Below, in pieces: positions 5,774 through 56,728 of a stretch of 64,000 nt of DNA. How positions within the stretch are numbered: the stretch's first letter is position 1; every line of letters starts with the position of its first letter. Origin of the DNA: Candidatus Saccharimonadota bacterium. Lineage in GTDB: Bacteria > Patescibacteriota > Saccharimonadia > Saccharimonadales > 2-12-FULL-41-12. The notes under the pieces were generated by a model. It made no database searches and was not told the DNA's origin. It saw only the letters and a program-made list of their open reading frames with translations. Where the stretch lies: assembly GCA_016219345.1 (NCBI GenBank), contig JACRNE010000001.1, forward strand, positions 461 through 64,460, given 5' to 3'. A program made the translations under genes and the position numbers.

Positions 5774-5774
5774 G

Positions 5775-10722: not shown

Positions 10723-10724
10723 TT

Positions 10725-11027
10725 TTAGTTATCCTGGAATGGATTGTCTCTAGCGGCTTTGAATAATGATTGAACCCCTACGCTTTGGTCTTCAAGCTGC
10801 TCAATTTTGCTGATGGTTTCTTGATCTATTTTTGGTCTTTTTATGGTGTTTAGTTCTTCATTAATTTTCTCATCACTAGGTTCTATAGAAGAAAGTCTAT
10901 TGATTTGGAATACTAAAAGTCCGTAGATACTTATAACCGACACAATAAATACAAAGATCATATGAGGCTTAATGGCCTTTGCAAGCTTCTTAATATATGC
11001 TGGTATGCTTTTTAAATCTATCTTCAT
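10725..11027 (-). CDS. small single-TM protein at the distal end of the pilus operon
   Basis: 100 aa, overlaps the pilO-like stop by 4 nt. One TM helix (MIFVFIVSVISIYGLLVF). Confidence 0.45.
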   Translation of the reverse strand: MKIDLKSIPAYIKKLAKAIKPHMIFVFIVSVISIYGLLVFQINRLSSIEPSDEKINEELNTIKRPKIDQETISKIEQLEDQSVGVQSLFKAARDNPFQDN

Positions 11028-13344: not shown

Positions 13345-13415
13345 TTTGCCCACCAAAGTGCCATGTTAACTATATCATATAAGTTGCTTTTAACAGATGG
13401 TGATTATGCTGAGAC

Positions 13416-41069: not shown

Positions 41070-42311
41070 TTACAGGCTAAATCTTTCGGTGTGAATTTGT
41101 TTCTTTGGTACTTTTCTGGCTATTAATTCTTCGCATATTTTATTCATCATTACTGGCGGACCGCAGACATAGAAGTCATAATCAACTAGATTATCTATTT
41201 GTTTTTCAATGAAACGGGCTGTTATAAAGGCGGGTTTTTCGTTTGAGCTGGGCTCGCTAAGAGCTTTATAAAATTTCGCTTTACTTGAGCTGATAACCTT
41301 AGAATAGGCTATATCTTCATTGGTCCTCGCTCCGTAAAAAAGATAATCAATTTTTTTAGCTTGCAACCAGCGGATAAAAGGAGTTATACCAATCCCGCCG
41401 GCAATTATTACGCTAGGCTTATGTTTTTTCTCCAACTCTCTTGTGTATATGCCGAATGGACCGTCTATGAATACGACTTCTCCAACCTTTAAATTAGCTA
41501 GCGAAGACGAATACGGACCCACTGCTTTTATGGAGAAACTGAGTTCGCCAGATTTTTTATCAAAATGAGAGATTGTGAAAGGATGCGCTTGACCGAAGCG
41601 TTTTGCTTGAAAGTAAGCGAACTGTCCTCGTCTTGGTACAATTTTCTCACCAATCGGGATTAGCTGAAAACGTGTCACATTTTTTGCCGGCAGTGAAGTT
41701 TTCACAATTTTGTATTTTGATTTTGTAAATCCAGACCAATCAAGCAGCCTTAGTGTCAGTGCTATCCCGTAAGTTATGGCTAAAAAAGATACCCAAAGTC
41801 TAATCAGCCCAGGGTCCTTAAGGTCACTCCCAACCTTAAAAGCGTGTAGTAATAGCAGCGGCAAAATGACATAACCAAAAAGATGGAGTCTTTTCCACCA
41901 TCTCCAAACTAAACGATCACGCAAAATAGCGCTGGCAAACCATATTATGGCGAGCAAGCTAAAGGCAACTTTACCTATCAAAATGCCCTTATCAAGCGTT
42001 GTCGACGTACTAAATGAAAGAGGATTTAGCTCATATGATAGAACCATCAAAATGGGATGAAAAAATATGATCAAAAATCCGTATTTACCAACGAATTTAT
42101 GAATTTTATTAATCCAAAACAAATCATCGGTAAAAAGACGATTTATTTGCCTATCGCCTAAAATAATTTGCCACCAAATAAGCTGTAAACCAACTAAGCC
42201 TATAAACTGACCAATATTAAGTCTCGAGGGTTCTGATAATAATGGCAAATAAGCAACCAGGCTTGAAATAATCAAAACGATTAGTAGGATTTTTCTGTAG
42301 CCCCAAGACAT
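41070..42311 (-). CDS. ferric-reductase-type transmembrane domain fused to FAD/NAD(P)-binding module (NOX/FRE-like)
   Basis: Six TM helices carrying His residues, then HPFTISH (FAD), GGIGITPF (NAD) and C-terminal YVCGPP. Confidence 0.75.
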   Translation of the reverse strand: MSWGYRKILLIVLIISSLVAYLPLLSEPSRLNIGQFIGLVGLQLIWWQIILGDRQINRLFTDDLFWINKIHKFVGKYGFLIIFFHPILMVLSYELNPLSFSTSTTLDKGILIGKVAFSLLAIIWFASAILRDRLVWRWWKRLHLFGYVILPLLLLHAFKVGSDLKDPGLIRLWVSFLAITYGIALTLRLLDWSGFTKSKYKIVKTSLPAKNVTRFQLIPIGEKIVPRRGQFAYFQAKRFGQAHPFTISHFDKKSGELSFSIKAVGPYSSSLANLKVGEVVFIDGPFGIYTRELEKKHKPSVIIAGGIGITPFIRWLQAKKIDYLFYGARTNEDIAYSKVISSSKAKFYKALSEPSSNEKPAFITARFIEKQIDNLVDYDFYVCGPPVMMNKICEELIARKVPKKQIHTERFSL

Positions 42312-43090: not shown

Positions 43091-43741
43091 ATGCATAAAA
43101 TTGGTGTTTTTGATTCTGGAGTAGGGGGCAAATCCGTTGTTGCTGCGATTAAACAGGCTGTTCCAGATCTTGAAATAGTCTATGCAGAAGATCCAGACAA
43201 TGTACCCTACGGCGACAAAACACCTGAGCGTTTAATTGAGCTAGTAATTCCAAAGCTAAAAGAACTTGAAAGCCAAGGCTGCGAGGTGATTGTGGTGGCA
43301 TGTAACACTGTTACGACAACTATTATCAAGGAGGTTAGGCGGCAGATTAAAGTGCCAATTGTGGCCATAGAACCTATGGTCAAGCCGGCTTGTGAGTTAA
43401 CAAAATCAAACATAGTAGCTATGTGCGCTACCCCAGTGACTTTAAAAAGTCCAAGATATAAAGAACTTTTAAAAACAAATGCTAAAAACGTGAAGGTTAT
43501 TGAGCCAGACTGTAGTGATTGGTCCTGCATGATCGAAAACAATGAACACAACAGCGACATAATTGAAGACAGAATCGTCGAGGCCTGTGAAAAAGGTGCA
43601 GATGTGATAGTGCTAGGATGTACGCATTATCATTGGATTGAAGAAGAAATTAAACAGATAGCTAATAGATATAACGCTATGGTGATTCAGCCTGAACAGG
43701 CGATTATAAATCAGCTTAAGCGAGTGCTTGAACAGCTTTAA
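43091..43741 (+). CDS. murI: glutamate racemase
   Basis: IGVFDSGVGG, VVACNTV, VLGCTHY. Confidence 0.85.
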   Translation: MHKIGVFDSGVGGKSVVAAIKQAVPDLEIVYAEDPDNVPYGDKTPERLIELVIPKLKELESQGCEVIVVACNTVTTTIIKEVRRQIKVPIVAIEPMVKPACELTKSNIVAMCATPVTLKSPRYKELLKTNAKNVKVIEPDCSDWSCMIENNEHNSDIIEDRIVEACEKGADVIVLGCTHYHWIEEEIKQIANRYNAMVIQPEQAIINQLKRVLEQL

Positions 43742-45017
43742 TGAACTGTTCGGCTCGGTCTTTATAGTTTTTAAATAGACCAAAACTAGCACAGCCTGTT
43801 GAAAGTAACACAATGTCTCCGGGTTTAGCGTTTTTGTTAGCCTCATCTACGATTTCCGGCATATTATCGTCACCTAAAACGTAATTTGAAAACCCAATGG
43901 CATCTAACTCTGCCTGGATCTTCGGTGCAGTTACACCGATCAAGATAGCTTTTCTAACATTTGATTTCTTAACGGTCAGAGCTAACTCCTTAAAAGAGGC
44001 GCCTTTTTCTGATCCGCCAAGTATGACGACCTTTGGCCGGGCGAACGCCTCCATAGCCACTATTGCAGTTTCAGGTGTTGTTCCAAATGAATCGTCGTAA
44101 TATTTCACGCCATTAAGTTCACGCACCAGCTCTAGACGATGCTCCATGCCAGAAAACGTTGTCAGAACGGATCTGATGGCTTTGACGTCTTGATCAATTT
44201 GCCAGAATGCCGTAGTAGCCGCACAGACGTTCTGCCAGTTGTGCTTACCGAGTAGCTTGATCTCATCCACAGAGCAGATGCTCTGACCATCGATGACCAC
44301 ATCGTCATTTTCGATTATTGCACCTGGTGGATGGTAATAAGGTATTTTATGACCTGGGCTAGCAGATGCTATGTCTCTGGAAAATTCATTTTTGGCGTAG
44401 TAAATTGCAATATTATCAGGATCTTGGTTTTTAAACAGGGGTTTCTTTGCAGCAAAATACTCTCCTACATCTGTGTGCCAGTCTAGGTGCTCTGGAGCTA
44501 TCATGACGCAGACTGCTATTTTTGGTGAATACCTTAGATCGATTAATTGGAAGTTAGCTAGTTCTAATACCACCCAGTCAGCGGGTTGGATATCACCTTT
44601 TATTAGTTCGAGAGGCGGAGTACCAATGTTGCCACCCAGGTGGACTTTCTTGCCGCTAGCTTCAAGCATTTTTGCGATTAAAGTACTAGTCGTGCCTTTG
44701 CCTTTTGTGCCAGTAACGCCAACGATATTTTTGCTAGGACAAATTCTAAAAAATTCGTTAGTTACAGATGTAACTTTGTTTAAAATCCCCTCACCGTTAG
44801 CCTTGATTATCGAATTTGGATGGACACTTGGGGAGCGAACTATTAGGTCAAATTCATTTAAATCTTCTAGATAATTATCGCCAAGCTTTTTGCCGACATC
44901 ATTTGGGAGGTCTAGCGATTCATCGTTGTCGCAAACCGTAATATCATAATCAAGCTTTTTCCAATATTCATATGCAGATTTACCCTGACTACCATAACCT
45001 AAAATAGCTAATTTCAT
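43716..45017 (-). CDS. murD: UDP-N-acetylmuramoylalanine--D-glutamate ligase
   Basis: MKLAILGYGSQGKS, VGVTGTKGKGTTS, DDSFGTTPE. The track ORF extension to 45146 is non-protein-like. Confidence 0.9.
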   Translation of the reverse strand: MKLAILGYGSQGKSAYEYWKKLDYDITVCDNDESLDLPNDVGKKLGDNYLEDLNEFDLIVRSPSVHPNSIIKANGEGILNKVTSVTNEFFRICPSKNIVGVTGTKGKGTTSTLIAKMLEASGKKVHLGGNIGTPPLELIKGDIQPADWVVLELANFQLIDLRYSPKIAVCVMIAPEHLDWHTDVGEYFAAKKPLFKNQDPDNIAIYYAKNEFSRDIASASPGHKIPYYHPPGAIIENDDVVIDGQSICSVDEIKLLGKHNWQNVCAATTAFWQIDQDVKAIRSVLTTFSGMEHRLELVRELNGVKYYDDSFGTTPETAIVAMEAFARPKVVILGGSEKGASFKELALTVKKSNVRKAILIGVTAPKIQAELDAIGFSNYVLGDDNMPEIVDEANKNAKPGDIVLLSTGCASFGLFKNYKDRAEQFIKAVQALA

Positions 45018-45045
45018 AGAGTCATTGTAGCATCCGCTAATTCGC

Positions 45046-45115
45046 TTAAGTGCTCCGCTAGGCATAGGCGCAGCGCGGACTGAGCCGTATTTAAATACGG
45101 TGATGGAGCACTTAA
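45046..45115. other. 11-bp inverted repeat enclosing a 16-nt palindrome
   Basis: ttaagtgctcc (45046-45056) pairs with ggagcacttaa (45105-45115). They flank ccgtatttaaatacgg (45085-45100). Confidence 0.4.
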
Positions 45116-45191
45116 AGCCTATAACAACGCGGAGTGCTAAGAACATATGCAGAGTTGCTTGCTCAGCAAGAAAGCAGGCAGATGTGGCGAA

Positions 45192-45566
45192 TTATGCGGA
45201 TAGGTGTTTTTTAACTAGATCCACAACTTGACTAGGGGTCATATCAGCCTTCAAAATAACTGCGCTGACCCCCAGCTTCCTGACATCCTCAGGAATTTCT
45301 TGTTCACCGACGTTTGTTAAAACTATAACTTTTACGTCTTTGCCCCAGGTAGTCTCGCGCATTTTGGCCAACATAACATCACCCGTCATCTCTGGCATCA
45401 TAAGATCTAGGAGTACTATGTCGGGGCCCATTTCTTCTATCAGAGAAAGGCCTAACTTGCCGTTCTCAGCAGTTTCAACGTCGTATCCCTCGGATTCAAA
45501 TTTAATCCGATACATCTGACTGATAACTCTGTCATCTTCAACAATTGCAATCTTAGTCATAACCAC
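45192..45566 (-). CDS. receiver-only response regulator (CheY-like)
   Basis: KIAIVEDD, VLLDLMMPEMTG (phospho-Asp), VIVLTN, K at LKADMTP. No output domain. Confidence 0.9.
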   Translation of the reverse strand: MVMTKIAIVEDDRVISQMYRIKFESEGYDVETAENGKLGLSLIEEMGPDIVLLDLMMPEMTGDVMLAKMRETTWGKDVKVIVLTNVGEQEIPEDVRKLGVSAVILKADMTPSQVVDLVKKHLSA

Positions 45567-45595
45567 TTAATTATAAACCAAAAGCTTTATTTATA

Positions 45596-46711
45596 TTATA
45601 TTGGGGTTGCATTAGATTCGATCTCCACAAGAAGATCATCCCTGCATATTTCACCGTTAAGGATGCATATCTTCTGTCCCCCGAAAACTTTTTTAATAAC
45701 CGGTTCAATGTGACTCAAATACTTTGAGTCTTTTATATACACACGGACTCCTTGTAGATCGCTCAGAGATATTCTCTTTGGCTTAAATGGAACGTAGTTA
45801 GATAAATTTTTGTAATCTATTAAGGCTTCTAGATTTTCTAGCATTGTATACACTTGAGAACTGGCTTCATATGGGTTTTTTGTGTCTTCTCCTTTAATGC
45901 TGGCAGTTCCCGAAATGAATAGCAGACCCCTCCCACCTAAATCTTGAACAGAGGCTCTAGAGAAAAGAGGAGGACTTTTTCCATATCTTTTTGAATACAT
46001 TTGTGGATCAACCTGCTCAGGGTTAGAAATATAGAAAACTTTATCATTCGAAAGCAAGGCTTCAATTATTAAAGGGCCGCCCCTTTTTGATCCCACTACG
46101 GTAGCAGCTGAAGTCTTCGTACCTCCTAGATGATTTACTGAATTAAAGTATTTCATCAAGGCACCTTTACGTCCTTTATTGAACTGTTCATAACGCTGGC
46201 TAATAATTTTGCCATTAATCTTTTTTGAATCATTAAACATGCCAGGAATGAAATTCCAAGTTCTGATAATATTTTCTGGCAACTGACTGGACTTTATGAG
46301 ATCGACCAGTTTTTTATACGAGAGATATGTGAGTTCACGAATTTCATCAGACCCATCGTTTAATAAATGAGCTGCAGGTTTTTTAATGGAGCTTTCTGTG
46401 CATATAAATCTAACGAATGTGTAATCTTTAGATGAAGTTTTAATAAGAATAATACGATCATCTCCGGAAATAATCTTATTTCTTGACAGTATATTTTTAC
46501 GGAGGGTCCATGTCTCCACACTATAATTGCTAAGAGGAGGCATTAATAAATCAGAACCTATAGTTTCAATTTTCTTAATGTCTGTCGCTTTTTTTCTCAA
46601 AGAATCATGAAAGCTTGATAAGCGTAAAGTCTTTGTGTAGTTACCCTGCGCCTTAAGTGACCCGGGAGAATAAAAGTTAACTAAAATTGGCGGCTTATCT
46701 GTGTAGCGCAT
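45596..46711 (-). CDS. FkbO/Hyg5/XanB2-type chorismatase homolog (RidA/YjgF-like fold)
   Basis: RTWNFIPGM..QRYEQFNKGR, NPEQVDPQMYSKRYGKSPPLFSRA, FISGTASIKGEDT, EICRDDLLVEIE. As I recall them, these parallel the family blocks RIWNY.P.I..ERY..FN.GR, NPRQ..AY.YP..YG.RSP.F.RA, SGTASI.G and DICR..LLVEIE. Confidence 0.6.
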   Translation of the reverse strand: MRYTDKPPILVNFYSPGSLKAQGNYTKTLRLSSFHDSLRKKATDIKKIETIGSDLLMPPLSNYSVETWTLRKNILSRNKIISGDDRIILIKTSSKDYTFVRFICTESSIKKPAAHLLNDGSDEIRELTYLSYKKLVDLIKSSQLPENIIRTWNFIPGMFNDSKKINGKIISQRYEQFNKGRKGALMKYFNSVNHLGGTKTSAATVVGSKRGGPLIIEALLSNDKVFYISNPEQVDPQMYSKRYGKSPPLFSRASVQDLGGRGLLFISGTASIKGEDTKNPYEASSQVYTMLENLEALIDYKNLSNYVPFKPKRISLSDLQGVRVYIKDSKYLSHIEPVIKKVFGGQKICILNGEICRDDLLVEIESNATPI

Positions 46712-46780
46712 ATCTGTATTTTTGGTTTTTGTGTTTGATAAACGATATTATTACAATCAGGAAATATTATACGCATATAG

Positions 46781-48202
46781 ATGAATAATAAAAGATCAGA
46801 TTTATTTGGAGAGTTGGATCTCTTTAAACGAATGGTAGAAAACGTGCCAGCATACGGTAAATTTCTCAGAGCCCAAAAATTTAATTATCACAGAGTTAAA
46901 AATATATCAGACCTAAAAAATGTTCCAACTACGGACAAAAAAAATTACATAGATAAATTTGACCTTAAAGAGTTAGCGTGGAATGGATGTTTGTCGGATA
47001 GCGACTATATAGTGAATAGCTCAGGGTCAACTGGAAAGCCTTATTTTTGGCCACGTAGCGAAGCTTCAGACAAAGACTCTGCTAAAATGTATGAAATAAT
47101 TTTCAAAGAGGTTTTCAGTGTAGGCGAGAAACCCATTTTGTTTATTAACTCTTTTGGCCAAGGCAGTTGGATCGCGGGTAACGAAGCCTTTCTCTCCACG
47201 ATGAACTTGAGCAAAAAAGGTATGCCAATAACGGCGATTAACTCGGGAATTGAACAATCATTGATCATCGATCAATTGATAAGATTGGCCCCTTTTTTCA
47301 CAAATGTAGTTTTTGCTGGATACCCACCATTTATAAAAGAGACTTTTGAACTTTTAAATCAGCGAAATAAGAATATCTTAAAAAAACATAGTGTTTACGC
47401 TGTTGTGGGCGGTGAATCAGTTAGCGAAAGATGGCGCGAAAATACAAAAAATACTTTAAAATATGCCAAAAAAGTTGAAGTCGTGAGCATATATGGGATG
47501 TCAGACGGTGGGGGGATATTGGCATTTGAAACACCAGTGACAAAATATATCAGGAAGCAGATTTTTAAGAGTAAAGATTCATTAAGAATCTTCGGAGGAA
47601 GGCATAATACGGCACTTTTCCAATACGATCCGATGACCAGGCATTTTACTACAGGCGAACAAGGGCAATTATTGATACACGTAAAGAATGGTCTCCCACT
47701 CTTTAATTACGATACTAAAGATAGTGGCGGAATTGTTCAGTTCTCAGAAGGAATTTCCCAGTTTTATGATAATTCTTCGCAAAAAACTGGGCTAAAAAAG
47801 TTTGAGAAATATCCTTTCGTCTATCTTCTAGGAAGAAGTGATTACGCCGTGACATTTTACGGACTAAATATTTACCCTGAGCACATTAGGGCAGCCATAG
47901 ATGAACTGACGGATAAGGATATAACGGGTAGATTTGTGCTCGAAAAGCGTGAAAATAAAGATGCGCAGCCTGAGCTCATAGTAAATTTTGAACTAGCAGA
48001 AAATAGGAAAGCTGCCTCTTTGGTGAATAAAAAAAGATTTATTGCGGAGCACATTTTTCAGACTTTACCGAAATATAATTCAGAATATGCTAAACTAGTC
48101 CGATCAATTAATAAACGTGCAATGCCAAAGATTAAATTTAAAAAGTTTGGTGAGATTGGTTACAAAGCCGGGAAGAAACATAAATGGGTGAAAAAAGACT
48201 AA
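46781..48202 (+). CDS. PaaK/F390-synthetase-like adenylate-forming ligase
   Basis: NSSGSTGKPYFWPR P-loop, YGMSDGGG, and a C-terminal lysine-rich lid. 473 aa. Confidence 0.7.
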   Translation: MNNKRSDLFGELDLFKRMVENVPAYGKFLRAQKFNYHRVKNISDLKNVPTTDKKNYIDKFDLKELAWNGCLSDSDYIVNSSGSTGKPYFWPRSEASDKDSAKMYEIIFKEVFSVGEKPILFINSFGQGSWIAGNEAFLSTMNLSKKGMPITAINSGIEQSLIIDQLIRLAPFFTNVVFAGYPPFIKETFELLNQRNKNILKKHSVYAVVGGESVSERWRENTKNTLKYAKKVEVVSIYGMSDGGGILAFETPVTKYIRKQIFKSKDSLRIFGGRHNTALFQYDPMTRHFTTGEQGQLLIHVKNGLPLFNYDTKDSGGIVQFSEGISQFYDNSSQKTGLKKFEKYPFVYLLGRSDYAVTFYGLNIYPEHIRAAIDELTDKDITGRFVLEKRENKDAQPELIVNFELAENRKAASLVNKKRFIAEHIFQTLPKYNSEYAKLVRSINKRAMPKIKFKKFGEIGYKAGKKHKWVKKD

Positions 48203-49449
48203 CCACTAGAACAGACGATTCTAGTGTGCCCAACTGGCTTAAAGAGGCCGAAAAAGCATCGGTTATTTCTGATAGTTTTGTCTCCAAAAATATTAAACCG
48301 ATCATACTGAATATGAATATTAGAAATGCAGACAATGCGCTAAGGGATCTTTGTAGGCAGGTTGAAATAACGCGGTTTATAGATGTTTTTGATGAGCAGC
48401 TAGCTGAATTATTTATCAGTGATAACGCGCAACTATACAAAGCTTCACTACAGGTGAAAAGATCATCGGTTAGGGACTATCTGAAGAATTATAAAAAAGG
48501 CAAATCCTCATGGCAACTGGGAAGCTGGGTTTATTATCCTTGGAGCGGTACCCTTATTCACATGCTGAGCGAGGACGAGTTCATAAAACTTAGAACTATT
48601 AGGAATCAGTTTATTATCACTGCAGATGAGCAGGAAAAGTATGCCTCCTATAGCGTGGGTTGTGCCGGGATGAGTGTGGGTAGTAACGGAGCAGTAGCGA
48701 TCGCTATAACGGGTGGTTCTCAGCGAATTAAATTAGCCGACGGAGCTGTTTTTAGTGGGTCAAATCTTAACCGCGTGCGCACAGGAGTTAAAAGTGTAGG
48801 TTTACCAAAAAGCATAATTATTGGTCGTGAACTTTATGAAATGAACCCATACTTAAGAATAGATGCAATAACAGAGAATTTAAGTGACAAAAATATTACT
48901 AGGTTTTTTGACAAGCCCTGGAAGCTAGACGCTGTTGTGGATGAGATTGATGACGTGATTATTAAAATAAAACTCCGTCTAGAAGCTAGAAAAAGAAAAA
49001 TTCCAGTCATCATGGTTACTGAGCCTGGGGATACCGTGATGTTAGACGTTGAGCGATTTGACAAAGATGATTCGCTACCCCTATTTCATGGTTTGCTCAA
49101 GGACGCAGAGAGGATAGCCGAGGCTGGATCATTTAAAAACGAAAGGGAGAGAATAAAGAGCATTGTTAAAATCATAGGCACACGTAACTTGCCTGTTCGT
49201 GATCAGCAAGCGGCGCTAAAGGTGGGTAGCGTGATTCCTTCGGCCCCTCAGCTTGGAAGCACTGCTATGATAGCCGGTGGTGTGATTTCATATGCAATTC
49301 GACAATTGGCCACAGATGCTCCCTTAAGAAGCGGCAGGCATGCCATAGACTTGAATAAGATTTTTTGGAAACCAAAAGATTATCTACGATATAAAATCAA
49401 TCACGAGACAAAAACAAGAAATCTAAATAGGGTTATTGGTAACATGTAG
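48184..49449 (+). CDS. ThiF/E1-like adenylyltransferase with N-terminal extension (Rv1355c-family-like N-terminal half)
   Basis: WVYYPWSGTLIHML, glycine-rich VGCAGMSVGSNGAVAIAITGG, LADGAVFSGSNLNRV. Overlaps the ligase gene by 19 nt. Confidence 0.7.
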   Translation: MGEKRLTTRTDDSSVPNWLKEAEKASVISDSFVSKNIKPIILNMNIRNADNALRDLCRQVEITRFIDVFDEQLAELFISDNAQLYKASLQVKRSSVRDYLKNYKKGKSSWQLGSWVYYPWSGTLIHMLSEDEFIKLRTIRNQFIITADEQEKYASYSVGCAGMSVGSNGAVAIAITGGSQRIKLADGAVFSGSNLNRVRTGVKSVGLPKSIIIGRELYEMNPYLRIDAITENLSDKNITRFFDKPWKLDAVVDEIDDVIIKIKLRLEARKRKIPVIMVTEPGDTVMLDVERFDKDDSLPLFHGLLKDAERIAEAGSFKNERERIKSIVKIIGTRNLPVRDQQAALKVGSVIPSAPQLGSTAMIAGGVISYAIRQLATDAPLRSGRHAIDLNKIFWKPKDYLRYKINHETKTRNLNRVIGNM

Positions 49450-50463
49450 GATTGATCCCAGGGGTACTCTACCTGATCTCCCCTCGATCCTACCTGCATA
49501 GCCTATTCGAACTAAGATTTGTAATCTCATTTTACTGCCAATTATCTCACCGACCTCTTTGTGGTAATCTGGTGCTTCAACTAATACAGCATTTGTAGAG
49601 TGTGCGAGACCAAGTCTCGTTAACTCTAAGCACAATTTCTCGTACTCTAGTCCAGTCTGGAGCCAGTCTTTTTTAGTGTCACCCTTTGTAAAAATTAACC
49701 CTAAAGCCGAAGCGCTTTTAATTTTTTTAAACTCTTTTCTTGCATTGATGTTTAAAAAAATTCCCAAACTGACCGATGATTTGACCCAAAGGGCCTCTAA
49801 TAATGAAGGGGCAAGAGCCAGAGCCGGTATTCCGATATCCTTGGGTCTTAATATCGGATTTATATATTCGTTTAGTTCGTGTCGCAGATCTTTGCTGCTG
49901 AATGCTAATTTAACTGCCTTTTCTGAAAGCAAAGATAGTTTATCAATAGTTGATCGGTCTTTGACTAAGATTGTCTTTGGAGAAAAACCTTTCTTAACTG
50001 ATTGCTGAAGCTTTTTATACATTTCTTGATTGATATTAGCACCATTAAAGACTCTTCGATTTGTTTGTCTTTCCAGAATTGTGTCGATAGCTGTTACTAT
50101 ATTATTTTTCGAGAACTTATATTTTTCGGATAACTTAAATCGTAATATAACACCTTCGCTGTATTGCTCTATGGAGGTCTTAAAGCCTAGGCTCTCGGCT
50201 ACATATACTATGTTTTGAGCGAAGGCACCCAGGCTTATCCATGTCTGCCTATTCGTGGGATCTGAGTGTTCCAGTTTTTTCGATGGATCTAGTTTTACAT
50301 CTAGGGTATTTGTGGGCTGGTTGATCTCGATTAACCAGGGTTGTGTGTTATGGACAGATGGAGCTAGATGACCCAAATAGCTAAGTAACTTTAAATTCGG
50401 AGTTTCTTTCATAGCAATTTCTGCCAATTCCTCAGCTGATTTTTTAGAAAATGTATTATTCAT
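49423..50463 (-). CDS. Acg-type tandem nitroreductase-fold FMN protein
   Basis: LGHLAPSVHNTQPW and about 345 aa, double nitroreductase length. I prefer the ATG at 50463 to the TTG at 50472. The 3' end overlaps the E1 gene convergently by 27 nt. Confidence 0.7.
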   Translation of the reverse strand: MNNTFSKKSAEELAEIAMKETPNLKLLSYLGHLAPSVHNTQPWLIEINQPTNTLDVKLDPSKKLEHSDPTNRQTWISLGAFAQNIVYVAESLGFKTSIEQYSEGVILRFKLSEKYKFSKNNIVTAIDTILERQTNRRVFNGANINQEMYKKLQQSVKKGFSPKTILVKDRSTIDKLSLLSEKAVKLAFSSKDLRHELNEYINPILRPKDIGIPALALAPSLLEALWVKSSVSLGIFLNINARKEFKKIKSASALGLIFTKGDTKKDWLQTGLEYEKLCLELTRLGLAHSTNAVLVEAPDYHKEVGEIIGSKMRLQILVRIGYAGRIEGRSGRVPLGSILHVTNNPI

Positions 50464-50479
50464 ATTAGTCAATTTTAAA

Positions 50480-50497
50480 TATACTTAATTAAGTATA
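50480..50497. promoter_or_regulatory. perfect 18-nt palindrome in the nitroreductase/kinase divergent spacer
   Basis: tatacttaa|ttaagtata. It supplies a TATACT-like -10 on both strands. Confidence 0.35.
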
Positions 50498-50505
50498 AAC
50501 TTCTT

Positions 50506-52680
50506 ATGCTTATCACATCTATATTAACTGCCTCAATAGCTATTAACCTTCTCGTTGCCTTTCTGGTTATTGTTCGTAATCCCAAAAGCGCCACTCATCG
50601 TTATTTTTTCGCACTTACCATTGCATTTATATCATTCGGGCTTATTAATTATATCTCTCTAAACCCTGTTTTGCTCAGCCAGATTACTTGGATAAGGTTA
50701 GATCTGATCAGCGGTGTTTATCTTTTTCTTCTCTTGTACTTAACTTTTTATGTTTTTCCCGAGCAAAAGCAACATTTACCTAGGTTTGCTAAATTTTTCG
50801 TACCCTATTCAGTATTTGTCTCAGCACTAACTTTAACCCCTTTTGTTTTCACACACCTGGAGGTAACAAGTAAGGGCGTACAGCCAATTCCAGGTCCAGG
50901 TATTGTCCTGTTTGTGTCCCAGCACATTTTGGCTATTTTAATGACCATCTGGGTAGTAGCCATTAAATACCGTAAAAGCGATGTCGCCCAGAAGAAACAG
51001 CTAAAAATAGTTATATCTGGAACTATGATATCCGTAATAACGATAATTCTTTTCAACCTTGTGGCGGTACAGGCTTTTCACAACAACAGCCTAATTCCTT
51101 ATAGCTCAGTTGGTGTTTTGGCCTTTACTCTTAGCTTCGCATTCTGCTTATTCAGATACAGATTTTTGGACGTTCGTTTGATTGTTGTACGGGCCTTAGC
51201 CTACGTCATGTTCATATCATCGCTGAGTATAATTTATGTGGTTACCGTCTTTGTTCTCGCTGATCAGCTTTTAATCACAGAGTCAGTATTTACACAGAGA
51301 ATTGTTCCAATTATTGCTGCTGTGTTCTTGGTGTTCACAGCTCCATTCTTCAAGAGATTCTTTGATCGCATTACTAACAGATTTTTCTATCGGGATGCAT
51401 ATGAGCCTCAAATATTATTTGATGAGCTAAACAAGGTGTTAATAAGCAATATCGAATTATCAATTCTGCTCAGGCATGCTAGCCAGGTCATACAAAGCCA
51501 CCTTAAAAGCGATATGTGTGTAGTTGCTGTCAACGAAGGTGATACATTGCCGCTACGGATAGCAGGGACAAAAGATATGCATTTTGATCAAAATGCGTCG
51601 TCTGTATTCATGGAGGATATGAAGGCCATATCATCAGACATGATAATTACGGACGAGTTAGATCAGCATAATGCACGGTTAAAAAAGATTCTCCAAGCCG
51701 TGAATGTATCAGTGGTTGTAAGGCTTCGTTCTGGCTCAAAAGACTCAAGCATCTTCGCCTTTTTGATGTTAGGGCCGAAGCGTAGTGGAAATCTATACGG
51801 TAAATTTGACCTAAAGATCATCAATATCATTGGCGATAGCATGGTTATAGCGATTCAGAATGCGCTTAGGTTTGAGGAGATACAGCAGTTTAACGTTACT
51901 TTGCAGGCCAAGGTGAATGAGGCAACTGCTAAGCTCCAAAAAACTAATAAAAAACTACGTGATCTAGATGAAACAAAAGACGAATTCATCAGCATGGCCT
52001 CACACCAGCTTAGAACTCCTTTGACCACCGTAAAAGGTTACATGAGCATGGTCTTAGAGGGTGATGCAGGCAAACTAACTAAGCCACAAAAAGAATTGCT
52101 TGAGCAGGCGTTCATTAGTTCGCAGCGCATGGTTTATCTAATAGCCGATCTATTGAATGTGTCCAGGCTCAAGACAGGCAAGTTCGTACTTGATCTCCAG
52201 CCTACCAACTTAGCAGAGGTTGTAGAAGGGGAGATAACGCAACTTAAGGAAACAGCTAATGCTAAAGGCCTGGGCTTTGAATTTAAGAAGCCAAAGAAAT
52301 TCCCAGAGCTAATGTTGGATGAGACCAAGATTCGACAAGTGATCATGAATTTCTCAGATAATGCGATTTATTACACGCCATCGGGTGGAAATATAACAAT
52401 AGAGCTGAAGGAGGACAAAAACAGCGTCTACTTCACGGTAAAAGACACTGGGCTAGGTGTACCTAAAGATGAGAAGTCCCATCTATTCACAAAGTTTTAC
52501 AGGGCAAAAAATGCCAGAAATGCCCGCCCAGACGGTACCGGTCTAGGACTATTTATGGCCAAAAAAGTGGTAGATGCGCTCGGTGGGAATATTATTTTTG
52601 AGAGTGAGGAGGGCAAGGGGAGTACCTTTGGCTTTACCTTCGAAAAACGCAAGCTAAAAGCCGATCATACCGAGAAATAA
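50506..52680 (+). CDS. sensor histidine kinase (multi-TM N-terminus, GAF-like, HisKA, HATPase_c)
   Basis: About 8 TM helices in the first 300 aa. A GAF-like region ends IAIQNALRFEE. H-box SMASHQLRTPL, N-box NFSDNAIYYTP, G-boxes DTGLGV and GTGLGL. Confidence 0.9.
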   Translation: MLITSILTASIAINLLVAFLVIVRNPKSATHRYFFALTIAFISFGLINYISLNPVLLSQITWIRLDLISGVYLFLLLYLTFYVFPEQKQHLPRFAKFFVPYSVFVSALTLTPFVFTHLEVTSKGVQPIPGPGIVLFVSQHILAILMTIWVVAIKYRKSDVAQKKQLKIVISGTMISVITIILFNLVAVQAFHNNSLIPYSSVGVLAFTLSFAFCLFRYRFLDVRLIVVRALAYVMFISSLSIIYVVTVFVLADQLLITESVFTQRIVPIIAAVFLVFTAPFFKRFFDRITNRFFYRDAYEPQILFDELNKVLISNIELSILLRHASQVIQSHLKSDMCVVAVNEGDTLPLRIAGTKDMHFDQNASSVFMEDMKAISSDMIITDELDQHNARLKKILQAVNVSVVVRLRSGSKDSSIFAFLMLGPKRSGNLYGKFDLKIINIIGDSMVIAIQNALRFEEIQQFNVTLQAKVNEATAKLQKTNKKLRDLDETKDEFISMASHQLRTPLTTVKGYMSMVLEGDAGKLTKPQKELLEQAFISSQRMVYLIADLLNVSRLKTGKFVLDLQPTNLAEVVEGEITQLKETANAKGLGFEFKKPKKFPELMLDETKIRQVIMNFSDNAIYYTPSGGNITIELKEDKNSVYFTVKDTGLGVPKDEKSHLFTKFYRAKNARNARPDGTGLGLFMAKKVVDALGGNIIFESEEGKGSTFGFTFEKRKLKADHTEK

Positions 52681-52721
52681 CAACTGGCTATTAGCATAAG
52701 AAAAATAGCTATAAACTAGAC

Positions 52722-52750
52722 TTGACAAAAAATAACGCTTGTGCTATAGT
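52722..52750 (+). promoter_or_regulatory. near-consensus sigma70 promoter of the vWA-MoxR-DUF58 operon
   Basis: TTGACA (52722-52727), 17-nt spacer, TATAGT (52745-52750). The ATG lies 9 nt downstream. Confidence 0.6.
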
Positions 52751-52759
52751 TATTCCACT

Positions 52760-53686
52760 ATGTCAGAAGTTTTGAGAACTGTGGTGCAGAATGCCCCTTA
52801 TGTTGGGGCAGCTGCTGGATATGCCTCTATGCTTGTAGCAGAGCGCAATATCGTAAAGCATGCTGCACAGGAGCGCCAACCCCTAAATGAAATTATTGGC
52901 GAAACCATCGAACAGTCTCAAAACCCTTCAATCAAAGACAGAATAAATAAATTTGTAGGCCCCTTAGCGGTTGCAGGCGCAATTGCTGGAGGTATGGTTG
53001 GCATGGCTTTTCAAGAAGAAGGAAAGGTTAAAACAAACACCAATCTACAGATGGTAGTCGATAGATCTGGCGGTACAAGAGCAGAAGTATCAGACGGTAC
53101 CGCAGCTGACAGCGTAAACGAGATTCTAGAGGAGTTTGCTTCTCATAATGAGACATCAGCGGATGTATTTGTTGCTCAAGGAGGAAGGGTCTCAAAGGCA
53201 AATTACCAAAAAGTCATCAATGAAGTACGACCGATTGGTGGAGCTCCGATGCAGGATGCGGTTGAACAAGCAATTTCCAATGTGGCAAGTACTAAATTAG
53301 AAGGCGATAATACGAAGAACGCAGTGGTTGTCCTTACTAACGGAAATAGTTTTGGTGAGCCAGATTCTGTAATACGTAAAGCCAGAAAAGCTGATGTATC
53401 CGTCTTTATAAAAAACATTGACGCTTCTTCTTCTGACTCAAAATCGATGAACAAAATATCAGAAAAAACGGGGGGACAATACATGACAGAATCAGACGAT
53501 CCAGAGAAGCTGTATGAGCAGGTTAAGGACAAATCCTCAGGCCAAGAGCTAAGGCAGGCTCCAGACAGCAAGCATGACATCCCAGAGAAGGTGCTATCAG
53601 TACTCCTAGCAGGAGGTATTTTAGGAGCCGTGGGACGAGCTAGGCGAAAAATGCCACTAACATTTAATGGATCAGACATTAAGTAA
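52760..53686 (+). CDS. membrane-anchored von Willebrand factor A (vWA) domain protein
   Basis: Hydrophobic segments at both ends. MIDAS-like VVDRSGGT, VVVLTNGNS, GGQYM. Confidence 0.7.
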   Translation: MSEVLRTVVQNAPYVGAAAGYASMLVAERNIVKHAAQERQPLNEIIGETIEQSQNPSIKDRINKFVGPLAVAGAIAGGMVGMAFQEEGKVKTNTNLQMVVDRSGGTRAEVSDGTAADSVNEILEEFASHNETSADVFVAQGGRVSKANYQKVINEVRPIGGAPMQDAVEQAISNVASTKLEGDNTKNAVVVLTNGNSFGEPDSVIRKARKADVSVFIKNIDASSSDSKSMNKISEKTGGQYMTESDDPEKLYEQVKDKSSGQELRQAPDSKHDIPEKVLSVLLAGGILGAVGRARRKMPLTFNGSDIK

Positions 53687-53696
53687 GGAGACTAAT

Positions 53697-54695
53697 ATGA
53701 ATACACATGAATCTATAAATCCAGCATCAGCAAACTTTTCACAAGAATTTCGCGACAATTCAATCAAGGAGCTTGATAAGCTGTTAATTGGACAGGACGA
53801 AGCAAAGCTTGGCGCTGTTGTGTCGTTAGTAGCTGGTGTTAACACAGTCTATGTTGGTGACCCAGGCGGCGGTAAGACAACCCTAGCTGGCGAAGTCTAT
53901 AAGATTTTTGAAGATATTGACCCATCTGAGGTCGCAGTAATACCTCCCCAGTCAGACCTCACGCCTCAACAAATGGTTGGAGGCCAAGTTAAATCTGAGA
54001 AAAAGACCGGTGATGATACAGAGTCACAGATCACTTTTGTGGAAGGTATAGTCACTCCAGACACTAAAATGATCTGGGCTGATGAGGTGAATCGTATTTC
54101 ACCGCTAGCAGTAAATGCTATTTTGAGCACTCTTGAATCAAGAAAACTTTCAACCACTACAGGAGAAATTGAGCTATCTAAACTTATATCGTCTGTTGCT
54201 ACTATGAACCCGGCTGAGCGAGCCCAAAGTAACTTTAAGGTTCCAGACGCAGTAGCTTCTAGACATGCCATAGGTGTTTTGCTAAACGGCAAAGATGAAG
54301 ATGTAACAACGGAAATATTTGGCGGTTGGAAGCCAGGATCAGTTAGCCCAGTTGCTACTACCGGAGACCTTGCTCAGATAAGGGCTCGATCTGAACAGAT
54401 TGTAATACCAGACAGCATGCAGGAATATGGCGGCAAGATGGCAATAAATGTCTCAGATTATCTTGCCACGGAAGGTATTATTAACGAATCTCCAAATCGT
54501 ATCGCAAGACAGATTAGCGAAGTGTCGCGAGCAATCGCTAACTTAGCTGGTGAAGATGCAGTAACTATAGAAAATATAAATCAAGCCACAAGATTTGTGC
54601 TTGGCGCTAGAGTGGGAATGCTAGTAGTTGGTGAAAGTGCTGGAAAAACAATTCAAAGTGCCCACGACCGATTACAAGTTGGCCACGAAGGGTAG
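53697..54695 (+). CDS. MoxR-like AAA+ ATPase
   Basis: AAGGAG SD. Walker A GDPGGGKTTLA, Walker B MIWADEVNRISPLAVNAILSTLESR, MNPAE. Confidence 0.85.
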   Translation: MNTHESINPASANFSQEFRDNSIKELDKLLIGQDEAKLGAVVSLVAGVNTVYVGDPGGGKTTLAGEVYKIFEDIDPSEVAVIPPQSDLTPQQMVGGQVKSEKKTGDDTESQITFVEGIVTPDTKMIWADEVNRISPLAVNAILSTLESRKLSTTTGEIELSKLISSVATMNPAERAQSNFKVPDAVASRHAIGVLLNGKDEDVTTEIFGGWKPGSVSPVATTGDLAQIRARSEQIVIPDSMQEYGGKMAINVSDYLATEGIINESPNRIARQISEVSRAIANLAGEDAVTIENINQATRFVLGARVGMLVVGESAGKTIQSAHDRLQVGHEG

Positions 54696-54700
54696 TAAAT

Positions 54701-55468
54701 ATGACTGAATTCAAAGAAACAAGCCGAGCTTTGGCAGATCTACCTGCTGGTAGTTTGATTGGATTTGGTCAACATATAGACCCAAATATTTCTACAAAAC
54801 CAGGCGTGATGCTAGGTGATCTAGAATTTGATCCAACTAGGCATAATCCAATGGACATAAACCATCTATCGCCCCTTGGTATTGCTACTGATGCGCCTCA
54901 AGTACGGCAAACTTTCCCTCACAAGCCACTACATATTGCTTTTACACAGGACAGAACTAGCCGAGCCGGTCTTGATTCTCTAAACGAGATGAAGCAACGC
55001 TCTGGCCAGGCTATATATGAGGGCATAGATAGTGCCCTACACGGCGTGGGAGATATGGTTATGGCTAGCTCCGTTGATGGTCAAGATAGGGCGAGATTTA
55101 TAGATGATTCTGCAAACCAAGGTGGTATATCTTTTGCTATAAGTGATTTTGAAGGAATGGATCTGTCATCAGTAGATTTTGACCAACTTGTTGCTATCAA
55201 GGTAAATCATCTGCTAGAGAGGGAAATACCCCAAAATGTCGGATTTATAAGCCTTGGAGGTGCAGTCGAGCTAAATACAGGCGACAAAAGACGACTTGAT
55301 AGATTCAACGCAAGGCTAGAGGAACATCACCAGGAGATTGTAGAGGAGCTGGAAGGTGCTGGAGCTGAAGTTGTGTCTGTTGTTGTGGATCCCCGCGTGC
55401 AAGATGCCTTTGATGCTATACGTGTCGATTCTGGTATCGCAAAAGCACTCGATCGACTTGACAAATAA
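54701..55468 (+). CDS. DUF58-like protein (MoxR/vWA partner)
   Basis: Its position after MoxR and the FAISDFEGMD motif resemble the DUF58 SDF block. Tentative. Confidence 0.5.
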   Translation: MTEFKETSRALADLPAGSLIGFGQHIDPNISTKPGVMLGDLEFDPTRHNPMDINHLSPLGIATDAPQVRQTFPHKPLHIAFTQDRTSRAGLDSLNEMKQRSGQAIYEGIDSALHGVGDMVMASSVDGQDRARFIDDSANQGGISFAISDFEGMDLSSVDFDQLVAIKVNHLLEREIPQNVGFISLGGAVELNTGDKRRLDRFNARLEEHHQEIVEELEGAGAEVVSVVVDPRVQDAFDAIRVDSGIAKALDRLDK

Positions 55469-55522: not shown

Positions 55523-55585
55523 AACAATCAATCTGAAGTGAGTGGGCTTCGGTTTAGAGGACAACATATATTTAAGGAGTTTTGT

Positions 55586-56728
55586 ATGTCAGATTCAAGC
55601 ACAATGGAAGCAATAAAGCACCCTATTGTTTTCGCTCTCGAGAATAAGAATAAGGTGATGGCAATCGGCTTTACTGTAGCAGCTCTTGGCGCAGCAGGAA
55701 TATCTGGTTGCGGGGAAAAAGACGAGCCCTCAGCGGGCGCTAATGCTAACCCGGCGGTAGCTTGCGATGTAGAAGGTTTTGCCAATCATTCATCAGATTC
55801 ATCTGATTTTGATAACACCGCCTTTCTACCTAAAGCTCCGGAAGGCATCGATGATACTGAAGAGGCAGAGAAATATATCTATGACAACCCTGTTGTAGAT
55901 ATAGATAAATTAGATCCAAATAGCTTAGCTGCGTTGATGTCAGCCGTGACTACACCGGCAAACGATGGTGCTACTACTAAAACATCATATGACTATGTTG
56001 AATCCTTTAAATCATCTCTTAGCGCCTATGGCGCAGAAGCTGGTGGACTTGATCGTGCTAAAACAGACTGTGCAGAAACTGCTAACACTCTTATACAAAC
56101 AGCCGAATTTAATGATTCATGGGCTGAAAAGGGTGAAAAAGTTGTAAGAATATCTGCTGAGCGTAACGAAAATTACGAAGTAGAAGGAATGAAACTAGAA
56201 AAACTAGTAGCAACCGATACACTATCTGGTGTAGAAGTAAAAGTTCGTGATACTAGCAAAGATATTGATGGCTTCACACCTGTACTTATATCAGCTGATG
56301 GGAATATGTACGTAAAAGGCGTTGTTGTTGAGAAACAAGCCGAGAATGATGAGAAAGAACGAGACGGTAAAAAAGGCGATAACGACCGCAATAATAAAGG
56401 TCAAAGCAAGCGCGGTGCCAAAGGCGGCGGCGGTTCAGGCCAAGATGGCGGAACTGGCGGCGGTAAAGGCGGCGGTGAAGGCAATGGCTGTGGTGGAAGC
56501 GGTTGCGGTAAAGGCGACAAAGGCGGAAACGATGGCGGCGGTGATGATGGCTGCGGAACAAATTGTGGTGATGATAATCCAAATCCTCCTCAACCACCTA
56601 ACCCTCCACAACCTCCAAATCCTCCTCAACCACCTAACCCTCCACAACCACCTAACCCTCCACAACCTCCAACCCCAGAGAATCCTAAAGGAGATGACCC
56701 AGGTCTTCCTCCAGGTGCACCAAATTAA
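55586..56728 (+). CDS. lipoprotein with acidic domain, Gly/Cys-rich tract and PPNPPQ repeats
   Basis: AAGGAG 7 nt upstream of the ATG. Lipobox AAGISG|C. Tail GGGGSGQDGGTGGGKGGGEGNGCGGSGCGKGDKGGNDGGGDDGCGTNCG, then (PPQPPN)n. Confidence 0.65.
   Translation: MSDSSTMEAIKHPIVFALENKNKVMAIGFTVAALGAAGISGCGEKDEPSAGANANPAVACDVEGFANHSSDSSDFDNTAFLPKAPEGIDDTEEAEKYIYDNPVVDIDKLDPNSLAALMSAVTTPANDGATTKTSYDYVESFKSSLSAYGAEAGGLDRAKTDCAETANTLIQTAEFNDSWAEKGEKVVRISAERNENYEVEGMKLEKLVATDTLSGVEVKVRDTSKDIDGFTPVLISADGNMYVKGVVVEKQAENDEKERDGKKGDNDRNNKGQSKRGAKGGGGSGQDGGTGGGKGGGEGNGCGGSGCGKGDKGGNDGGGDDGCGTNCGDDNPNPPQPPNPPQPPNPPQPPNPPQPPNPPQPPTPENPKGDDPGLPPGAPN
56576..56675 (+). repeat. coding tandem repeat, 18-nt unit (PPQPPN), about 5.5 copies
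   Basis: cctcctcaaccacctaac / cctccacaacctccaaat alternate. The translation is NPPQPPNPPQPPNPPQPPNPPQPPNPPQPPTP. Confidence 0.8.

Follow-up and report, generated by a model that had tools for sequence, protein, structure and literature searches.

The closest described relatives of the gene block examined here are the oxazolone synthetases. The block occupies positions 45192–52680 of the window (the whole stretch of DNA that was analysed: 64 kb of contig JACRNE010000001.1, from a Candidatus Saccharimonadota bacterium) and encodes a chorismatase-like protein, a ligase, a ThiF-like E1, a nitroreductase-fold flavin-dependent oxidase (FDO), a sensor histidine kinase and a receiver protein. Oxazolone synthetases were discovered in 2021, and in Mycobacterium tuberculosis in 2023–2025. 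OxzB, which works with OxzA, is the founding oxazolone synthetase (bioRxiv 10.1101/2020.06.11.147165); the split pair TyzB/TyzC produces tyrazolones together with TyzA (PMC10404671); and Rv1355c is TrzS, an N-acyl-tryptazolone (oxazolone) synthase that acts with the acyltransferase TrzA (Rv1356c) and performs an ATP-dependent cyclisation followed by an O2-dependent desaturation (PMC12856293). TrzS, TyzBC and OxzB all form oxazolones from N-acyl aromatic amino acids (PMC12856293, PMC10404671, PMC12596934), with an N-acyltransferase supplying the N-acyl amino acid in every described case (PMC12856293, PMC10404671), and a 2025 review considers this the only ThiF-like enzyme type known to act on a small molecule (PMC12596934). 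The physiological role of oxazolones is 'a major unresolved question' to their discoverers, who mention signalling (PMC12856293); the sensor kinase adjacent to the enzymes in the present block now makes that role testable.

Our analysis covered the window and about 35 non-redundant related loci fetched from Saccharibacteria and other Patescibacteria, onto each of which the six proteins of the block were mapped. On balance, and with modest confidence, we favour reading the block as a Patescibacteria version of the oxazolone (azlactone) pathway, in which a ligase stands in for the acyltransferase, the acyl donors are aromatic and a two-component sensor is tied to the enzymes. Its distinguishing features are the split synthetase, the replacement of the acyltransferase by a ligase, the interchangeable suppliers of the acyl donor, the seven-transmembrane (7TM)-(GAF) kinase with its receiver, and conservation across Patescibacteria. 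The linkage of the kinase to the enzyme genes is the most robust new observation; its meaning we infer. An earlier note on this DNA was right in outline, but its central premise, that the function of Rv1355c is unknown, has been superseded by the work on TrzS (PMC12856293).

Organisation of the locus

The block and its flanking murD gene comprise the following features (positions of the window):

45192–45566, minus strand: receiver-only (CheY-like) response regulator, 124 aa, PF00072 (Response_reg)
45596–46711, minus strand: FkbO/Hyg5-like chorismatase-like gene, 371 aa
46712–46780: divergent intergenic region between the chorismatase-like and ligase genes, 69 nt, presumed shared promoter region
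46781–48202, plus strand: PaaK-family ANL ligase, 473 aa
48184–49449, plus strand: stand-alone TrzS/Rv1355c-type ThiF-like E1, 421 aa
49423–50472, minus strand: nitroreductase-fold protein (FDO), 349 aa
50473–50505: divergent spacer between the FDO and kinase genes, 33 nt
50506–52680, plus strand: sensor histidine kinase with 7TM region, GAF-like middle, HisKA and HATPase_c, 724 aa
43716–45146, minus strand: murD (Mur_ligase_M/C), given as context and not claimed as a pathway member

The six open reading frames (ORFs), their overlaps and their spacers are as the earlier note described, and the motifs it named (SGTASIKG, CRDDLLVEIE, SSGSTGKP, GCAGMSVGSNG, SNLNRV and HNTQPW) are all present in the translations; profile and structure searches likewise support its four enzyme family calls. 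By their coordinates, the receiver gene begins 29 nt past the chorismatase-like gene on the same strand, the ligase and E1 genes share 19 nt, and the E1 and FDO genes converge and share 27 nt. The public gene call gives the FDO an ATG start and 346 aa, which makes the FDO/kinase spacer 42 nt. For the E1, ligase and chorismatase-like proteins, NCBI has 100 % identical entries under Candidatus Saccharibacteria. The murD gene lies on the same strand as the receiver gene, 45 nt downstream of it, and the two are possibly co-transcribed. A promoter and terminator scan of positions 43500–53000 returned counts that were not above those of shuffled sequences (22 versus 25.3 and 9 versus 6.8); hence, no promoter is claimed and the scan does not bear on the operon structure of the block.

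Comparison with described systems

The TrzA/TrzS system (M. tuberculosis, M. smegmatis and Rhodococcus jostii) resembles the block in the profile family of its E1, including the N-terminal domain, in its nitroreductase-superfamily FDO partner, in its link to aromatic amino acids and in its signalling neighbours, which are c-di-GMP genes in M. tuberculosis and a two-component system in the window. However, TrzS is one fused protein, whereas the E1 and FDO of the window are encoded by separate convergent genes and the FDO is nearer to the Acg family profile. In place of the TrzA acyltransferase, the window has a PaaK-family ligase and a predicted aromatic-acid-producing enzyme, and its host is a reduced-genome Patescibacterium rather than an actinomycete. 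The TyzA/TyzB/TyzC system (Rv2336, Rv2338c and Rv2337c) shares with the window the encoding of the ThiF cyclase and the FDO by separate adjacent genes, and its ATP-dependent cyclisation and O2-dependent desaturation (PMC10404671) are the chemistry proposed here for the window. It differs in that TyzB is a short ThiF protein (318 aa) and in that lauroyl-coenzyme A (CoA) is the donor, used via the TyzA acyltransferase; unlike the window, it has no ligase, aromatic-acid supplier, kinase or receiver. OxzA/OxzB of Pseudoalteromonas rubra is similar in carrying out ThiF and nitroreductase-fold chemistry on a small molecule, but in OxzB the two domains form one protein. Most oxzB genes also travel with the N-acyltransferase gene oxzA, unlike the situation in the window, and neither a ligase partner nor a two-component system has been described for OxzB.

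Two further groups of systems are reminiscent of the ligase and its neighbour. In the benzoxazole pathways of NatL2, BomJ and AjiA1 (PMC7204872), the ligase has the PaaK fold and its product feeds a heterocycle-forming step; in NatL2, the aryl-adenylate is attacked by a second small molecule and no CoA is involved (PMC7204872). NatL2, however, makes the aryl ester of two 3-hydroxyanthranilates, an amidohydrolase closes the ring, there is no ThiF or FDO partner, and ligases of this type share only about 14 % sequence identity with that of the window. In aryl-polyene cassettes, a chorismatase or tyrosine ammonia-lyase feeds an aromatic acid to a dedicated adenylating ligase, as with the XanB2 chorismatase and AMP-ligase of the xanthomonadin/arcuflavin pathways (PMC3949708) and with the tyrosine ammonia-lyase FlxA and ligase FlxY of the flexirubin cassette (NCBIfam NF053541 and NF053551); the lyase found in some of the related loci has FlxA as its best match. 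Those ligases feed an assembly line of the polyketide/fatty-acid type, in place of which the window has a ThiF cyclase and an FDO.

The E1 and FDO resemble a split TrzS

The E1 protein matched the Rv1355c-family model PRK07877 (E value 7e-82, 276 bits) over positions 9–348 of 722, with the N-terminal domain covered; the full-length cutoff of this model, 476 bits, is out of reach for half a protein. The FDO matched positions 359–646 of the same model (77 bits), in agreement with the earlier suggestion that the two are the halves of a split Rv1355c, and the placement of the 421-aa protein in the E1 superfamily also stood up to the profile searches. The ATP site of ThiF is conserved in the E1 (G162-M-S-V-G-S167, D186, S193-N-L-N-R197, K209 and D253-E-x-D256). 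An AlphaFold2 (AF2) model of the E1 (predicted local distance difference test, pLDDT, 86.5) returned AclA as its best Foldseek match (9egb, E value 2.7e-13), followed by ThiF, MoeB, MccB, TcdA and PaaA.

For the FDO, the Acg-family model NF047509 gave an E value of 1.9e-53 and 182 bits, under the cutoff of 199, and MsAcg (2ymv) was matched with an E value of 1.7e-10. The protein also aligned with the FDO half of the E1-FDO fusion P0247 (23 % identity, E value 3e-23) and with the Rv1355c-family member P0305 (E value 4e-10). Its motifs S39-V-H-N-x-Q-P-W46 and R135...T-N-R139 are conserved, the second of them in E1-FDO fusions as well. When NF047509 was run on three near E1-FDO fusions, P0247 and P0313 passed and P0281 fell just under the cutoff (196 bits); as FDO halves fused to ThiF pass or nearly pass the Acg model, the Acg label does not tell true Acg proteins from ThiF-linked oxidases and does not argue against a ThiF-linked role.

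Concatenated, the window E1 and FDO align collinearly with E1-FDO fusion proteins, four of which exceed the NCBI cutoff for Rv1355c (P0305, 685 bits; P0341, 557 bits; P0251, 534 bits; P0285, 485 bits). This collinearity, taken with the literature on Rv1355c/TrzS, indicates that the window E1 and FDO are a split TrzS-like pair, and we consider it likely that the E1 performs an oxazolone-type cyclisation. Residues known from experiment to be important in TrzS are Asp217 in the ThiF part and Arg540 and Gln651 in the FDO part (M. smegmatis numbering); the Asp motif of ThiF is present in the window E1 (D253/D256).

The PaaK-family ligase

The Pfam profile search gave no match for the ligase, PF00501 included, and its match to the PaaK model TIGR02155 (E value 2.6e-18) scored 66 bits against a cutoff of 646, which is below equivalog level. 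There was also a weak match to the FlxY profile (E value 4e-7). The AF2 model (pLDDT 87.9) was matched by Foldseek to PaaK1 (2y27, E value 1.2e-23, template modelling score about 0.74–0.75), with further matches to NatL2 (6tm4) and AjiA1 (6wuq). Orthologues keep the motifs S81-G-S-x-G-x-P87, Y238-G, E250-T-P, D314-x-G316, R352 and the catalytic lysine K466. From sequence and model, the protein thus appears to have a PaaK-like two-domain fold with intact adenylation motifs, and we take it to be active.

The ligase probably replaces the N-acyltransferase, joining an aromatic acid to an amino acid. No acyltransferase was found among the annotated genes of the related loci or of the module in the window, which covers only 64 kb of its genome, and the GNAT half of the GNAT-E1 fusion P0327, used as a probe, matched nothing in the window or any locus, although a single-sequence probe is a weak test. 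This lack of an acyltransferase in any locus, the tight coupling and fusion of the ligase to the E1, the free acids that the neighbouring suppliers are predicted to make and the NatL2 precedent within the PaaK family together point to a direct coupling role; that the ligase itself forms the amide we propose tentatively, as a close call.

Outside Patescibacteria, in Nostoc (L035), Ca. Manganitrophus (L036) and L037, the ligase has homologues that adjoin neither a ThiF nor an FDO gene, and the ligase family is therefore not oxazolone-specific. The full-length homologues in Nostoc sp. UHCC 0702 (L035, 6177–9518) and in an 8.3-Mb genome (L037, 4576–9548), each at about 33 % identity, adjoin Ser/Thr protein kinase genes rather than ThiF, a different signalling association.

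The chorismatase-like protein occupies a variable supplier slot

The 371-aa protein matched PF21168 (FkbO_Hyg5-like_N; E value 3.5e-10, 40.4 bits versus a cutoff of 27) and TIGR04444 (E value 6e-34), the latter with 118 bits, far under the cutoff of 325. Among solved structures it matched Hyg5 (5ag3, E value 2e-20) and FkbO (4bps, E value 2e-15), and its assignment to the chorismatase fold was not refuted by the profile searches. In the Hyg5 alignment, E363 corresponds to the catalytic E334, C356 to C327 and G268 to G240, while V205 stands opposite G173 of Hyg5 (catalytic Glu and CH-Hyg5 Gly/Gly/Cys signature residues as in PMC7170507). With two of the three signature residues kept, the product type cannot be assigned. 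About five close relatives (39–44 % identity) were found, every one of them on a Saccharibacteria-type contig. By sequence, the enzyme is probably a lineage-specific supplier of an aromatic acid, a hydroxybenzoate.

The gene adjoining the ligase, which we call X, varies among the related loci, and the supplier type was read locus by locus:

FkbO-like chorismatase: the window, L005/L006, L007 and L008 only
FlxA-like tyrosine ammonia-lyase (620 bits): L003, L009 and L014
Prephenate dehydratase: L012 and L017
Prephenate dehydrogenase: L020
Class-I aminotransferase: L013 and L032
ScyB-like ELFV dehydrogenase: nine loci of gene order B (see below), L034, L040 and L041
No supplier in the slot: seven loci

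Five of the six supplier types belong to aromatic metabolism, the aminotransferase being non-specific, and by their family assignments all six give, or can give, a carboxylic acid without an alpha-amino group. The products of the ammonia-lyase and the chorismatase can serve only as acyl donors. The supplier stays with the ligase when the gene order switches to B. In rough neighbour-joining trees, supplier type was mostly clade-specific, with nested losses, and the ligase of Harrisonbacteria (L034) fell among those associated with a dehydrogenase, even though the E1 of the same locus is an outgroup. These observations, and a TrpRS/TyrRS paralogue in L034, favour an aromatic acid as the substrate of the ligase.

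Conservation and natural fusions

Ligase, E1 and kinase occur together in every related locus whose contig is long enough, with the ligase within a few kilobases of the E1; in L008 and L040, no receiver was found. Two gene orders were found in Saccharibacteria (RR, response regulator). Order A, that of the window, is murD< RR< X< >ligase >E1 <FDO >kinase, and order B is murD< RR< >E1 <FDO >X >ligase >kinase. Median identity to the window across loci was 66 % for the receiver, 44 % for the E1, 44 % for the kinase, 33 % for the ligase and 31 % for the FDO, and the fast evolution of the last two is consistent with changing substrate specificity.

In other Patescibacteria, the same genes are found in different company. 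In the Harrisonbacteria locus L034, ligase, ThiF, FDO and 7TM kinase genes are joined by an ELFV dehydrogenase, a TrpRS/TyrRS paralogue and two receivers. L038 (2696–13320) encodes two successive ligase-ThiF pairs, an S-adenosylmethionine methyltransferase and a 461-aa NAD-binding protein, all upstream of a 7TM-GAF kinase and a receiver. In L041, the genes for a dehydrogenase, the ligase, an E1-FDO fusion, an alpha/beta-hydrolase, the kinase and the receiver are tightly packed in one direction, and pilus genes come after them.

A profile search with the E1 against 1.8 billion representatives returned 1,092 clusters at E≤1e-30, comprising both stand-alone and FDO-fused E1 proteins. Natural fusions join the ligase to the E1 (P0267), an ELFV dehydrogenase to the ligase and E1 (P0307), the E1 to an aromatic ammonia-lyase (P0268), the E1 to the FDO (P0247) and a GNAT domain to the E1 (P0327). 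The recurrence of the gene set across loci, its survival in more than one gene order and these fusions indicate that the adjacency is functional; the earlier note had regarded it as incidental should it recur in no other genome, and it does recur in the approximately 35 loci. What the note saw as a four-enzyme module is indeed a conserved, kinase-associated unit, but not a fixed one, as the chorismatase is one of at least six suppliers and the FDO is absent from four loci.

A conserved alpha/beta-hydrolase gene lies between the E1 gene and the kinase gene in L040 (10732–11607) and L041 (9292–10182); its neighbour on the E1 side is a dehydrogenase-ligase-E1 fusion in L040 and the E1-FDO fusion in L041. 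It is absent from the window and from the Saccharibacteria loci, and it could open or transfer an oxazolone.

Proposed pathway and alternatives

In the proposed pathway, the chorismatase-like enzyme would convert chorismate, which may be the host's, to an aromatic acid of the hydroxybenzoate type. The PaaK-family ligase would then adenylate this acid and pass its acyl moiety on to an amino acid that is probably aromatic, giving an N-aroyl-amino acid, the job done in the known systems by the acyl-CoA N-acyltransferases OxzA, TyzA and TrzA; NatL2 provides the precedent. The TrzS-type ThiF enzyme would adenylate the carboxylate of the N-acyl-amino acid and close the 5(4H)-oxazolone ring, a step suggested by its E1 family membership and intact ATP site. 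Finally, the FDO would desaturate the C-alpha/C-beta bond with O2 to yield a conjugated 4-ylidene-oxazolone, as its homology to the FDO halves of TrzS-like fusions suggests. Bacteria of the candidate phyla radiation (CPR) have no lipid biosynthesis of their own and are missing many of the amino-acid pathways (bioRxiv 10.1101/2021.07.08.451036), which would explain a move away from fatty acyl-CoA and the possible use of host chorismate or prephenate. If the proposal is true, the chemical space of this family extends to 2-aryl oxazolones, aromatic acids replacing fatty acyl groups. Where the earlier note envisaged the activation of a carboxylate, either of an aryl acid or of a peptide or protein, followed by redox tailoring, the first option survives: the activated carboxylate is probably that of an aryl acid, with a flavin redox step to follow.

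Several observations weigh against this pathway, every chemical step of which rests on analogy. The FDO obtains 182 bits with the Acg-family model as against 77 bits with that of Rv1355c, and it is just 22–23 % identical to fused FDO domains. Four loci (L021, L023, L033 and L038) keep the ligase, E1 and kinase but have no FDO, so desaturation is not always part of the core chemistry, which may differ from classical oxazolone formation. Four of the supplier types make 2-oxo acids or interconvert amino and oxo acids, for which the fit to N-acylation is less obvious. The best structural match of the E1 is AclA (9egb), and the nearest solved structures to the ligase are true CoA ligases (PaaK1, BT_0428 and 2-hydroxyisobutyryl-CoA ligase).

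Some of these points would suit an alternative in which the ligase and E1 make another product and the FDO is optional, for example an arylpyruvoyl or aroyl conjugate that is cyclised or amidated to another heterocycle or to an activated acyl donor. The loci without an FDO, the two ligase-ThiF pairs and methyltransferase of L038, the alpha/beta-hydrolase added in L040 and L041, the preponderance of supplier types giving 2-oxo acids and the AclA match would all be accommodated. Set against them is the membership of the E1, with its N-terminal domain, in the Rv1355c/TrzS profile family, its collinearity with E1-FDO fusions and the fact that every characterised member of that family makes oxazolones, and we consider this alternative unlikely.

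Somewhat less probable still is that the ligase is an ordinary aryl-CoA ligase and that the N-acyl-amino acid comes from an N-acyltransferase whose gene lies in another part of the genome, the oxazolone pathway being otherwise the same. Its structural neighbours would fit this role, the characterised oxazolone pathways all use an acyl-CoA-dependent acyltransferase (PMC12856293, PMC10404671) and the GNAT-E1 fusion P0327 exists in the wider E1 family. Yet the related loci show no acyltransferase within the module or close to it; the ligase always adjoins the E1, the two genes sharing 19 nt in the window, and P0267 and P0307 combine both enzymes in one protein; and NatL2 is a PaaK-family enzyme that bypasses CoA (PMC7204872).

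That the genes are instead unrelated housekeeping or salvage functions (aromatic acid salvage, detoxification of flavins or nitro compounds) held together by inherited synteny is highly improbable. The genomes of Saccharibacteria are compact and share synteny, the receiver keeps murD beside it as well without an obvious functional link, and the promoter and terminator scans were uninformative, but the gene set survives the rearrangement between orders A and B, several of its members are fused into single proteins, and L034, L038, L040 and L041 show it beside other neighbours in further classes of Patescibacteria.

Least probable of all is that the substrate of the E1 is a protein or peptide (a sulfur carrier, a ubiquitin-like protein or the precursor of a ribosomally synthesised and post-translationally modified peptide), activated at its C-terminus and then modified by the nitroreductase-fold enzyme, the MccB/McbC/SagB analogy of the earlier note: nitroreductase-fold dehydrogenases do work in azole-peptide pathways and the E1 fold matches ThiF, MoeB, MccB and PaaA, but TrzS, TyzB/TyzC and OxzB do oxazolone chemistry, the E1 belongs to a TrzS-type profile family and is naturally fused to small-molecule enzymes (ligase, amino-acid dehydrogenase and ammonia-lyase), no YcaO was seen, the spacers of the module (29, 69 and 33 nt) are too short for the carrier protein or precursor ORF that the note also had not found, and the sole conserved small ORF near related loci encodes a basic membrane protein that lacks a Gly-Gly end and is not in the window.

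Kinase, receiver and a possible signalling role

The kinase matched PF16927 (HisKA_7TM), PF00512 (HisKA) and PF02518 (HATPase_c), and its translation contains the H-box SHQLRTP. Of the description as a multi-transmembrane GAF histidine kinase, the 7TM, HisKA and HATPase_c parts were thus recovered by Pfam, whereas GAF was not matched by Pfam in the whole protein or in a fragment of residues 299–475. Residues from about 300 to 457 align over the Pfam-recognised GAF domain of the L038 homologue (27 % identity, E value 9e-87), so a GAF domain in the window kinase is predicted by transitive homology only. The presence of a tyrosine ammonia-lyase and a ligase beside the kinase had raised the idea of a covalent chromophore like that of photoactive yellow protein; it was dropped, as the sensor region has no conserved cysteine (C338 is present in just 26 % of orthologues).

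The receiver matched PF00072 (E value 2.8e-20) and has no output domain; its phospho-acceptor pocket (D11/D12/D54/T84/K106) is kept in 30 orthologues. A receiver of this kind cannot act on the module as a transcription factor in its own right, so that its direct transcriptional control of the module genes, and with it the 'regulated pathway' of the earlier note, is not supported, and a product-sensing model is favoured. In this model, the kinase would sense the product of the pathway, a precursor or a derivative, and the locus would both make and sense a signal instead of being an operon under transcriptional control. Alternatively, the kinase and the enzymes answer to the same cue. PilB/PilC-like genes follow the receiver in L041 and murD follows it in most Saccharibacteria; these neighbours are hints about the output, not evidence.

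The linkage of kinase and receiver to the enzymes across deep Patescibacteria lineages is the strongest genomic hint so far of oxazolone signalling and names a candidate receptor. For CPR biology, it points to a conserved module that would combine a small molecule with its sensing, in bacteria about whose recognition of hosts little is understood. A more speculative reading, which we think unlikely in its full form, is that the locus converts a metabolite into a signal, as a self-contained unit suited to epibiotic life: a lineage-specific aryl-oxazolone, made by the supplier, ligase, ThiF cyclase and FDO, would be the ligand of the adjacent 7TM-GAF kinase, its precursor would probably be host-derived, and the receiver would act on surface machinery (type IV pili) or on cell-envelope synthesis. 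The precursor may be chorismate, prephenate, tyrosine or tryptophan, the first two of which the bacterium itself probably cannot make. Were this true, oxazolones would gain their first receptor and first defined physiological role, and swaps of the supplier gene would create 'dialects'.

Neighbouring genes in the window and related loci

In the window, murI (glutamate racemase, plus strand) and murD (minus strand) converge at 43091–45146 with a 26-nt overlap (43716–43741), and the adjacency of murD and the receiver gene is kept in at least 17 related loci. Directly 3′ of the kinase gene, the region 52739–55468 encodes a vWA-domain protein and a MoxR-type AAA ATPase, along with a 255-aa protein that no Pfam model matched; the three together look like a MoxR-vWA system. 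Next is a 396-aa protein (55538–56728) with no Pfam match, which has a Gly-rich stretch and then perfect (PPQPPN)n repeats near its C-terminus, followed by a PKD-domain protein (56754–57839). On the other side of the block, 41070–42311 encodes a ferric-reductase-like transmembrane flavocytochrome (Ferric_reduct plus FAD/NAD-binding domains), unusual in a reduced genome.

Among the related loci, the kinase gene of one sub-clade is met at its 3′ end by a convergent gene for a conserved, small and very basic single-pass membrane protein (68–82 aa, MAKQKKKRNK...), in all cases on the minus strand:

L001, 12382–12609, minus strand
L003, 12392–12679, minus strand
L009, 11370–11621, minus strand
L011, 8056–8361, minus strand
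L014, 13415–13705, minus strand
L033, 12432–12671, minus strand

Downstream of the receiver, L001 encodes a flavin-reductase-like protein of 216 aa. In L005 (1–5166), a 2,421-aa RHS/PA14 protein and an Imm33-like immunity protein adjoin the receiver gene and are a possible contact-dependent toxin system. In L034, the TrpRS/TyrRS-like paralogue is a class-I synthetase (5133–6134), and an M16 peptidase gene lies between a 122-aa FDO fragment and the full-length FDO (10111–13767). Finally, metagenome-assembled genomes labelled Verrucomicrobiia, Parcubacteria and Chlamydiae (L009, L028 and L031) hold a Saccharibacteria-type locus, with murD-receiver synteny in L028 and L031, which suggests mis-binning or mislabelling.

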